Source: Escherichia coli (lineage in GTDB: Bacteria > Pseudomonadota > Gammaproteobacteria > Enterobacterales > Enterobacteriaceae). From it: 64,000 nucleotides of DNA. Position 1 is the first letter of the stretch; each line of letters begins with the position of its first letter. Location of the stretch: assembly GCF_003334765.1 (NCBI RefSeq), contig NZ_QOWT01000004.1; one strand, 5' to 3'. The translations under genes and the position numbers were made by a program. Below the pieces are notes generated by a model. The model was not told where the DNA came from. It did no database searches and saw only the letters and a program-made list of their open reading frames with translations. Of this stretch, positions 49,279 to 51,525 are shown piece after piece.

Positions 49279-49821
49279 ATGATTATCTATTTACACGGTT
49301 TTGACTCTAACAGTCCGGGTAACCACGAGAAAGTCTTACAATTGCAGTTTATTGACCCGGATGTACGCTTGATAAGCTACAGTACGCGGCATCCGAAACA
49401 TGATATGCAGCATCTGCTTAAAGAAGTGGACAAAATGTTGCAACTGAACGTTGACGAGCGTCCGCTAATTTGCGGCGTTGGCTTGGGCGGATACTGGGCG
49501 GAACGGATTGGTTTTCTTTGCGACATCCGCCAGGTGATCTTCAACCCTAATTTGTTCCCTTATGAGAACATGGAAGGCAAGATTGATCGCCCGGAAGAGT
49601 ATGCCGATATTGCCACTAAGTGTGTGACCAACTTCCGTGAGAAGAATCGCGATCGTTGCCTGGTGATTTTGTCGCGTAATGATGAAGCGCTTAACAGCCA
49701 GCGGACATCTGAAGAGTTGCATCATTATTACGAGATTGTCTGGGACGAAGAGCAGACGCACAAATTCAAGAATATCTCCCCGCATTTACAGCGCATTAAA
49801 GCGTTCAAAACCCTCGGGTAA
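49279..49821 (+). CDS. ycfP: UPF0227 alpha/beta-hydrolase-fold protein YcfP, 180 aa
   Basis: ORF 49222-49821; recognised start at internal Met [34 protein letters not shown]... Confidence 0.88.
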
Positions 49822-49822
49822 A

Positions 49823-49950
49823 TGCCCTCGTCGCATCAGGTAACCTTGCCGGTACCTGATGCGCTCCGAATTCTGTGGGTCGGATAAGGCGTCCACGCCG
49901 CATCCGACAGTCGAGCATCAATGCCTGATGCGCTTCTTATCAGGCCTACC
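49823..49950. repeat. REP/BIME cluster downstream of ycfP
   Basis: Hairpin GCATCAGGTAACCTTGCCGGTACCTGATGC, then REP-like GGGTCGGATAAGGCGTCCACGCCGCATCCGACAG and GCCTGATGCGCTTCTTATCAGGCCTAC. Confidence 0.75.
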
Positions 49951-50070
49951 GAACGCCCTGCATACACCCCTCACTCTATATCACTCTCACAAATTCGCTC
50001 AAATAATAAACAATAAACTCTGTTTTTTGATCTCACCCGGTAAAGTCGCCTATCTTTTCAGCAACAAAAC

Positions 50071-50084
50071 TTGATTAACATCAA
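50071..50084. promoter_or_regulatory. FNR binding site in the ndh promoter (perfect TTGAT-N4-ATCAA)
   Basis: TTGATTAACATCAA ~140 nt upstream of the ndh start; ndh is a well-known FNR-repressed gene. Confidence 0.8.
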
Positions 50085-50220
50085 TTTTGGTATGACCAAT
50101 GCACCATTCATGTTATTCTCAATAGCGAAGAACATTTTCATTGCTGTAACCTGTTGTTAATTAAGAGCTATGTTAATAACCATTAATTAACAATTGGTTA
50201 ATAAATTTAAGGGGGTCACG

Positions 50221-51525
50221 TTGACTACGCCATTGAAAAAGATTGTGATTGTCGGCGGCGGTGCTGGTGGGCTGGAAATGGCAACACAGCTGGGGCATAA
50301 GCTGGGACGCAAGAAAAAAGCCAAAATTACGCTGGTCGATCGTAACCACAGCCACCTGTGGAAACCGCTGCTGCACGAAGTGGCGACTGGCTCGCTTGAT
50401 GAAGGCGTCGATGCGTTGAGCTATCTGGCCCATGCGCGCAATCATGGTTTCCAGTTCCAGCTGGGTTCCGTCATTGATATTGATCGTGAAGCGAAAACAA
50501 TCACTATTGCAGAACTGCGCGACGAGAAAGGTGAACTGCTGGTTCCGGAACGTAAAATCGCCTATGACACCCTGGTAATGGCGCTGGGTAGCACCTCTAA
50601 CGATTTCAATACGCCAGGTGTCAAAGAGAACTGCATTTTCCTCGATAACCCGCACCAGGCGCGTCGCTTCCACCAGGAGATGCTGAATTTGTTCCTGAAA
50701 TACTCCGCCAACCTGGGCGCGAATGGCAAAGTGAACATTGCGATTGTCGGCGGCGGCGCGACGGGTGTAGAACTCTCCGCTGAATTGCACAACGCGGTCA
50801 AGCAACTGCACAGCTACGGTTACAAAGGCCTGACCAACGAAGCCCTGAACGTAACGCTGGTAGAAGCGGGAGAACGTATTTTGCCTGCGTTACCGCCACG
50901 TATCTCTGCTGCGGCCCACAACGAGCTAACGAAACTTGGCGTTCGCGTGCTGACGCAAACCATGGTCACCAGTGCTGATGAAGGCGGCCTGCACACTAAA
51001 GATGGCGAATATATTGAGGCTGATCTGATGGTATGGGCAGCCGGGATCAAAGCGCCAGACTTCCTGAAAGATATCGGTGGTCTTGAAACTAACCGTATCA
51101 ACCAGCTGGTGGTGGAACCGACGCTGCAAACCACCCGCGATCCAGACATTTACGCTATTGGCGACTGCGCGTCATGCCCGCGTCCGGAAGGGGGCTTTGT
51201 TCCGCCGCGTGCTCAGGCTGCACACCAGATGGCGACTTGCGCAATGAACAACATTCTGGCGCAGATGAACGGTAAGCCGCTGAAAAATTATCAGTATAAA
51301 GATCATGGTTCGCTGGTATCGCTGTCGAACTTCTCCACCGTCGGTAGCCTGATGGGTAACCTGACGCGCGGCTCAATGATGATTGAAGGACGAATTGCGC
51401 GCTTTGTATATATCTCGCTATACCGAATGCATCAGATTGCGCTGCATGGTTACTTTAAAACCGGATTAATGATGCTGGTGGGGAGTATTAACCGCGTTAT
51501 CCGTCCGCGTTTGAAGTTGCATTAA
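50221..51525 (+). CDS. ndh: Type II NADH:quinone oxidoreductase NDH-2, 434 aa, TTG start
   Basis: ORF 50194-51525; recalled protein begins (M)[53 protein letters not shown] at TTG 50221, preceded by GGGGG; two GxGxxG dinucleotide folds. Confidence 0.93.

Follow-up and report, generated by a model that had tools for sequence, protein, structure and literature searches.

ndh encodes the non-proton-pumping NADH dehydrogenase (Ndh-2), and its control sets the respiratory efficiency of E. coli as oxygen changes. Several described elements come closest to the sequence in front of this gene. Multi-repeat binding sites of phosphorylated ArcA (ArcA-P), such as the three-repeat sites of icdA and acs, consist of an 18-bp box with extra repeats (Park 2013). 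The boxes of PhoB and OmpR, members of the same response-regulator family, share with them the tandem direct repeats, the 11-bp spacing and a head-to-tail phosphorylated dimer, while recognition sequence and regulon differ; the PhoB-DNA structure is the model that was used for ArcA (Park 2013). The nearest described opposed arrangement is the dctA promoter, where a primary ArcA site and a weaker site on the opposite strand give a long continuous footprint (Park 2013). At the RNA level, RNase III cuts 5' leader hairpins in rnc, pnp and the set of Gordon 2017, and in rnc and pnp the cut initiates mRNA decay. Park 2013 already includes ndh in Tables S1, S3, S4 and S7, and ndh is one of 11 verified RNase III sites (Gordon 2017). 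Here we propose that the AT-rich repeats preceding its start codon are very probably a cluster of ArcA-P recognition elements situated in the transcribed ndh leader, and we read the leader hairpin as chiefly a by-product of the operator layout.

The window analysed is a 64-kb stretch of E. coli DNA, in which the gene order around the feature is nagZ, ycfP, ndh, ycfJ, comR. Positions 50036-50336 are identical in sequence to NC_000913.3:1165900-1166200 of K-12 MG1655, and the segment 49900-50400 was matched in 5,426 of 5,426 complete E. coli genomes. ndh opens with a TTG preceded by a run of G, as an earlier note on this DNA had stated. The GGGGG of the Shine-Dalgarno sequence is nearly invariant among the aligned leaders; most genera start ndh with TTG, Kluyvera and Shimwellia with ATG, and Raoultella, Yokenella and others with GTG. 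A 443-residue ORF beginning at 50194 was discarded as a mechanical artefact of ORF listing, the annotated ndh start being the TTG at 50221.

Two independent published numberings converge on the same transcription start. A perfect FNR box, TTGATtaacATCAA, occupies 50071-50084, and since its centre lies at 50077.5 and the ndh FNR site was placed at -50.5 (Myers 2013), +1 corresponds to 50128. Independently of the FNR numbering, the ArcA site reported at +46/+77 'relative to mapped TSS' (Park 2013 Table S7) is the segment 50173-50204, which therefore yields the same +1. An extended -10 element is correctly spaced upstream of this position, and the resulting leader is 93 nt long (TSS 50128 to TTG 50221). 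The earlier note had left the place of the repeats relative to promoter and leader to TSS mapping; with +1 at 50128 they lie inside the ndh leader. A consensus scan of 49800-50300 returned no sigma-70-like site; since the real promoter departs from the consensus, this result carries no information. For the ndh TSS, the Kim 2012 supplement contained just 2-3-read signals, inside ycfP, and the Cappable-seq supplement gave no match. The landmarks of the gene start are as follows.

50111-50119, plus strand: extended -10 TGtTATTCT of the ndh promoter, invariant in 81 of 81 aligned sequences
50128, plus strand: ndh transcription start (+1)
50210-50215, plus strand: Shine-Dalgarno sequence AGGGGG, upstream of the ndh TTG
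50221-50223, plus strand: ndh start codon TTG, the annotated start of the coding sequence

Two nested short inverted repeats had been reported at this place. The first (IR1) is present, with GTTAAT at 50172-50177 facing ATTAAC at 50186-50191, one base away from the coordinates originally given, and can be extended to 7-bp arms (TGTTAAT 50171-50177, ATTAACA 50186-50192) with 8 nt between them. The second (IR2) is exactly as claimed (TTAAC 50187-50191, GTTAA 50197-50201) and extends to 6-bp arms (ATTAAC 50186-50191, GTTAAT 50197-50202). Taken singly, each short repeat is at chance level for DNA this AT-rich: a perfect inverted repeat with arms of at least 6 and a loop of 3-12 is present in 41% of dinucleotide-shuffled leaders. 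The joint occurrence of four such inverted repeats has P ~0.025 in dinucleotide shuffles of the leader. IR1 and IR2 are fragments of a larger imperfect palindrome of 54 nt that the earlier note had missed, with arms at 50147-50171 and 50176-50200 around a 4-nt centre. Complementarity of 20 of its 25 opposed bases (80%) was reached by 0 of 2000 shuffled leaders, and the arms include a perfect 11-bp core, TTGTTAATTAA at 50154-50164 opposite TTAATTAACAA at 50183-50193 (P ~0.002, shuffled leaders).

50147-50200, plus strand: imperfect palindrome, equivalent to the leader RNA hairpin (+20 to +73), located by repeat finding, with its loop at 50172-50175

Conservation was assessed over 89 ndh loci, namely the 80 closest from Enterobacteriaceae and nine more distant ones (Erwinia, Pantoea, Mixta, Winslowiella, [Pantoea] beijingensis, Shimwellia, Buttiauxella, Tenebrionibacter and an endosymbiont); the protein relatives listed have at least 84% identity, and this sampling stops short of Yersiniaceae, Pectobacteriaceae and Morganellaceae. 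Across the 89 enterobacterial ndh leaders the sequence forms a near-invariant block, GTAACyTGTTGTTAATTAArrGyTAT-nnnn-ATAACyTTTAATTAACAATTGGTTAAT, and positions +1 to +18 and the four central bases are free to vary. Among the 77 distinct sequences, 13 of the 25 opposed positions are without any variation. Invariant sequence combined with little covariation indicates that the constraint acts mostly on sequence, pointing to a protein that recognises the DNA. IR2 (TTAACAATTGGTTAAT) shows no change in 81 of 81 aligned Enterobacteriaceae sequences. The left arm of IR1 (50172-50177) falls into the sole variable stretch of the block, which elsewhere reads GCCTAT, TTTTAT, ATTCAT and others; IR1 is therefore specific to Escherichia, and one of the two palindromes originally reported is not conserved beyond that genus.

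An ArcA matrix derived from 114 published boxes, none of them that of ndh, was used to scan 127,966 positions of the window; the published boxes themselves reach a median of 15.9 bits on this matrix, the lowest scoring 9.5 bits. Its matches in the ndh leader include the single best position of the scan.

50143-50153, plus strand: TGTAA-type repeat of GCTGTAACCTG, flanking the plus-strand box in 11-bp register
50154-50171, plus strand: ArcA box TTGTTAATTAAGAGCTAT in the left arm, 11.5 bits, 7th best in the window
50173-50204, minus strand: ArcA site of three direct repeats, TTATTAACCAA, TTGTTAATTAA and TGGTTATTAA in succession (+46 to +77), identical to the published string
50176-50193, minus strand: strongest ArcA box, TTGTTAATTAATGGTTAT, 18.8 bits, best of 127,966 positions

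The segment 50173-50204 holds every arm of both reported inverted repeats, and an overlapping minus-strand box at 50187-50204, shifted by 11 bp from 50176-50193, scores 12.9 bits. On the plus strand, GCTGTAACCTG, TTGTTAATTAA and GAGCTATGTTA follow each other in 11-bp register. Judged by its sequence, the leader is thus best described as two putative triple-repeat ArcA sites that converge, one per strand. Instead of the two nested short palindromes taken as units in the earlier note, the candidate units are TGTTA-type direct repeats phased at 11 bp on the minus strand, together with a second set that converges with them from the plus strand. The classical ArcA box consensus WGTTAATTAW occurs three times in the window, twice in the ndh leader (once at 50155-50164), and 5 of the 15 best matrix matches of the 64 kb are in or just upstream of this leader. 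Matches above 5 bits are centred at +35.5, +51.5, +57.5, +65.5 and +68.5 and reproduce +36, +52, +57, +66 and +68 of the published list of predicted ArcA sites in ndh, which also gives -57 (cited in Rolfe 2012). The boxes were also scored in the orthologous leaders of Enterobacteriaceae, Erwiniaceae, Shimwellia and Buttiauxella. A minus-strand box of at least 11.9 bits is found in 88 of 89 of these leaders (median 19.4 bits), at a nearly constant distance (-39 to -48) from the start codon in the 17 loci with listed positions, and a plus-strand box of at least 9.5 bits in 86 of 89 (median 12.8 bits). In the control, 1 kb of ndh coding sequence, the best ArcA box reaches a median of just 3.3 bits.

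Published data place ArcA at the same position. ArcA peaks at ndh were detected by ChIP-chip (11.9-fold) and ChIP-seq (11-fold) (Park 2013), the best ndh box being ttgttaattaatggttat on the minus strand with 18.7 bits (Park 2013 Table S3). A three-direct-repeat site, TTATTAACCAATTGTTAATTAATGGTTATTAA, was assigned to 1165260-1165291, with repeats of 3.6, 12.5 and 8.0 bits (Park 2013 Table S4); the reverse complement of 50173-50204 is exactly this string. The ChIP peak centres map to 50140 and 50152, that is 25-50 bp upstream of the best box, which is within the resolution of the method, and closer to the left-arm box. In vitro, ndh transcription was repressed by ArcA-P and not by dephosphorylated ArcA (Rolfe 2012). 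IPOD-HR gave six factors with overlapping sites at the ndh promoter, including IHF, PdhR, NsrR and ArcA. No ArcA-P DNase I footprint on ndh was found, and the entry for 'previous ArcA DNA binding' in Park 2013 Table S7 is blank. An ArcA-dependent change of ndh expression was absent under the growth conditions of Park 2013, and earlier profiling had suggested activation of ndh by ArcA, in contrast to the in vitro repression; the sign and size of the ArcA effect in vivo are condition-dependent. Of the two classes of function that the earlier note had considered, that of a regulator site is borne out by the ArcA ChIP-seq peak, the three-repeat site and ArcA-P repression in vitro. ArcA was among the candidates named there for inspection of footprint data, and it has a published ChIP peak and three-repeat site at this position.

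These observations suggest how the operator could work. When oxygen is scarce, ArcB phosphorylates ArcA, and ArcA-P dimers would bind cooperatively to the repeats just downstream of the TSS, bringing about repression of ndh. The proposed contacts are, on the minus strand, three TGTTA-type direct repeats phased at 11 bp (50173-50204, +46 to +77) and, on the plus strand, the set that converges with them (about 50143-50175, +16 to +48). The ndh promoter itself is the target of FNR and PdhR, alongside which ArcA-P would repress. From the positions of the sites, repression may operate through blocked promoter escape or elongation. Convergence of the repeat sets, together with the palindrome TTAATTAA inside each core, TGTTAATTAA, gives rise to the 54-nt DNA palindrome; as a consequence, the transcript folds into a long AU-rich hairpin, which is cut by RNase III.

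The hairpin is well supported by prediction. It has a minimum free energy of -17.2 kcal/mol (z -4.26, with 0 of 200 shuffles as stable) and pairs 21 of 25 opposed positions in E. coli, and RNAalifold independently predicts it from the aligned leaders. Over the 77 distinct sequences 91.1% of cells are paired, compared with 24-55% for slid controls. The fold of the whole leader reaches a z of just -1.36, the signal being confined to the hairpin. A cleavage site of RNase III is recorded at NC_000913.3:1166043, annotated 'Intergenic (ycfP-ndh)', with 108 reads in the rnc deletion versus 0 in the wild type (Gordon 2017). In the same study a long duplex was predicted, purified RNase III cut the ndh hairpin, and 5' RACE revealed several cuts (Gordon 2017).

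50179, plus strand: RNase III cleavage coordinate, mapped from 1166043 by exact sequence identity, within the 3' arm and close to the hairpin top

Accordingly, the other class considered in the earlier note, a leader RNA structure, is also borne out, as a hairpin in the leader that RNase III cuts (Gordon 2017). Its further suggestion that such a structure influences initiation at the weak TTG is unsupported. The hairpin ends 9 nt upstream of the Shine-Dalgarno sequence, and the ribosome-binding site is predicted to be equally accessible in the presence and absence of the hairpin (0.45 versus 0.42-0.44), so that masking of the RBS or the TTG by the hairpin was rejected. The element is moreover kept in several genera whose ndh starts with ATG or GTG, and RNase III cleavage is without reported effect on the transcript, being described as having 'no impact on transcript stability (upstream of ndh)' (Gordon 2017). 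In a second RNase III dataset, ndh goes unmentioned in the main text (Altuvia 2018), and an Rfam search of the leader gave just sub-threshold miRNA-like or sRNA matches, with 15-18 bits versus gathering scores of 79-97.

A conserved unit that is primarily RNA, in which the hairpin is selected for RNase III or another RNA-binding factor and sets ndh translation or mRNA fate while the resemblance to ArcA boxes is secondary, would agree with the stable fold (z -4.26), its RNAalifold prediction and 91% pairing across species, and with RNase III cutting the ndh hairpin in vivo and in vitro (Gordon 2017). We consider it improbable. Pairing alone does not demand invariance, yet 13 pairs are invariant in sequence, and the covariation score of 0.066 does not stand out from that of shuffles (0.068). 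Double changes occur in 1 of 25 pairs, 50161/50186, which goes from U-A to U.G and C-G (5 C-G, 8 U.G, 12 broken); the 5 doubly changed cells compare with 1.7 in shuffles, 4 of 500 shuffles reaching 5. Of 71 distinct sequences, 58 fold more stably as the plus strand than as its complement, with a mean difference of 3.15 kcal/mol, because the mismatched positions are G.U and not C x A, but this strand test lacks phylogenetic independence and depends on about four columns. In E. coli it is the minus strand that folds better (-18.9 versus -17.2 kcal/mol), and 49 of 77 sequences leave C50168 x A50179 unpaired. Shimwellia has exchanged TTAT..ATAA for TTGT..ACAA with its 19-bp stem kept, and Pantoea and Mixta retain the fold with asymmetrically altered cores; however, the changed bases in these relatives still make acceptable ArcA boxes. 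The unchanged transcript stability after cleavage (Gordon 2017), the unchanged predicted RBS accessibility and the lack of an Rfam family at the leader likewise speak against an RNA element. Together, the strand asymmetry and the compensatory changes in Shimwellia hint at some RNA-level constraint as well, and they are suggestive only. That the same 54 nt serve both as ArcA-P operator in the DNA and as a selected hairpin in the mRNA is conceivable, and we regard this dual use as doubtful. If it were true, the converging boxes and the G.U-tolerant drift of the arms would be kept for post-transcriptional tuning of Ndh-2 synthesis, through RNase III processing or another RNA event, for example an altered 5' end of the TTG-initiated message.

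Proteins that bend or coat AT-rich DNA offer another account, in which the repeats are mainly sites of IHF and Fis, possibly also of H-NS, that repress ndh from the leader. The IHF consensus WATCAANNNNTTR is matched at 12 of 13 positions at 50147-50159 on the minus strand (+26), 50188-50200 on the plus strand and 50191-50203 on the minus strand (+67 and +70), three one-mismatch matches where 0.13 are expected, and IPOD-HR assigns IHF occupancy at the ndh promoter. Fis is said to bind at +51 and IHF at +26 in ndh, in work attributed to Green et al. in 1996 and 1997 and to Jackson et al. in 2004. Binding of HU and IHF to the ndh promoter is also cited from Green 1997, and the main text of Prieto 2012, an IHF ChIP-seq study, does not mention ndh. 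The IHF matches overlap the ArcA repeats and may simply follow from them. IHF and Fis sites are degenerate, and near-invariant 11-bp cores across genera are not usual for them, whereas the core conserved here is identical with the ArcA consensus and outscores all other positions in 64 kb. We treat IHF and Fis as putative co-occupants; as an account of why the core is invariant they appear highly improbable. MqsA (TAACCT...AGGTTA), a PdhR half-site (AATTGGT), operators of DeoR, LacI-family and TetR/ComR regulators and Dan/H-NS motifs were dropped for the reason that the ArcA matrix explains the invariant core. Functionless chance products of low-complexity AT-rich intergenic DNA would fit the 41% of shuffled leaders that contain a single 6-bp inverted repeat and the missing conservation of IR1 outside Escherichia. 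They do not fit the 11-bp core (P ~0.002) or arms whose complementarity of 20 of 25 appears in 0 of 2000 shuffles, nor a block nearly invariant in 89 loci within a variable leader and at the centre of published ChIP and RNase III data; the chance reading is already refuted by the conservation and the published occupancy data.

The reading of the repeats as an ArcA-P operator concerns a feature that is real, strongly conserved and already described twice, once as a multi-repeat site of ArcA and once as a substrate of RNase III. It adds no new regulator, the AT-rich repeats very likely being the ArcA operator already present in the ChIP-seq tables. What may be new is that ArcA operator and RNase III hairpin are the same sequence, the separately reported hairpin being the transcript of the operator; this link has perhaps gone unstated before, and we did not find the coupling of the two sites stated in the accessible literature. 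For the scanning of genomes the locus implies that converging response-regulator boxes in a leader will resemble RNA structure, and that sequence invariance combined with very little covariation is the signature by which an operator is told from an RNA structure.

In comparison with the multi-repeat ArcA-P sites (Park 2013), ndh has the same TGTTA-type repeats with 11-bp centre spacing, likewise three consecutive repeats, a score of 18.8 bits that equals the best published boxes, and an ArcA ChIP peak. It differs from them in that its site is wholly downstream of the TSS, occupying +46/+77 and preceded by additional boxes from about +16, in that a second, converging set on the opposite strand creates the 54-nt palindrome, and in that expression did not change under the Park 2013 growth conditions. 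At dctA the opposed sites are 24 bp apart and without repeats, whereas the opposed sets of ndh abut and overlap and the transcript can fold back. With the RNase III-cut leader hairpins of rnc, pnp and the Gordon 2017 set, ndh shares a duplex of at least about 22 bp and rnc-dependent cleavage. Unlike in rnc and pnp, however, message stability is unchanged by the cut, and the ndh duplex is almost all A-U, its sequence apparently fixed by a DNA-binding motif.

The layout of the promoter upstream of ndh could be read straight from the sequence and comprises two FNR boxes and a PdhR-type palindrome, which are listed here together with a REP-type element in the ycfP-ndh intergenic region:

49878-49946, palindromic element of REP type, separating the ycfP and ndh genes, similar to Rfam naRNA4 (RF02564) on both strands
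50027-50040, second, weaker FNR-type box, TTGATctcaCCCGG
50071-50084, FNR box, perfect match TTGATtaacATCAA, centred at -50.5
50087-50099, PdhR-type palindrome TTGGTATGACCAA, covering the -35 region of ndh

The weaker FNR box lies at the published position, -94.5. The PdhR-type palindrome is kept in nearly all ndh orthologs compared. The ArcA matrix scored an ArcA-like box on the minus strand (50064-81, 10.3 bits), sharing bases with the perfect FNR box. This box is the counterpart of the ArcA site predicted at '-57' of ndh, as cited in Rolfe 2012. The runner-up ArcA-box score of the window, 15.9 bits, fell to TTGTTATTTTTGTGTTGC (3239-3256, minus strand), which is the yceJ box of Park et al. 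2013 Table S3 and therefore belonged to the matrix training set.

Similarity of the REP-type element to naRNA4 reached 56.5 and 52.5 bits on the two strands, slightly missing the Rfam gathering score of 59.5. The sole terminator-like stem of the scan (49915-49931) lies within this element.

The ndh start codon, mostly TTG (50221-50223 in the window), varies among genera, being ATG in Kluyvera and Shimwellia and GTG in, among others, Raoultella, Yokenella and Klebsiella michiganensis (for differences see orthologous loci L025-L037, L046, L070-L073, L081 and L085), and a switch is frequently paired with a 1-nt change in the distance to the invariant GGGGG. The ORF listing gave ndh as 443 residues (50194-51525) starting from TTG 50194, a codon within the ArcA site; this start was set aside, the annotated protein having 434 residues from 50221.

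A minor, weak stem predicted at 50214-50226 (GGUCA / UGACU, 3-nt loop) links the final two G of the Shine-Dalgarno sequence with the TTG start codon. Its conservation is little informative because the 3' half is coding sequence. In minimum-energy folds of Erwiniaceae leaders (L083, L084, L088-L091), CCUUCAGAU, located right after the -10 and about 85-95 nt ahead of the ndh start, pairs with AUUUGAGGGGG, the Shine-Dalgarno sequence about 10-20 nt ahead of it. Provided that CCUUCAGAU is transcribed, this putative pairing could possibly act as an anti-SD clamp. The E. coli ndh leader differs in lacking this candidate clamp predicted for its Erwiniaceae counterparts.
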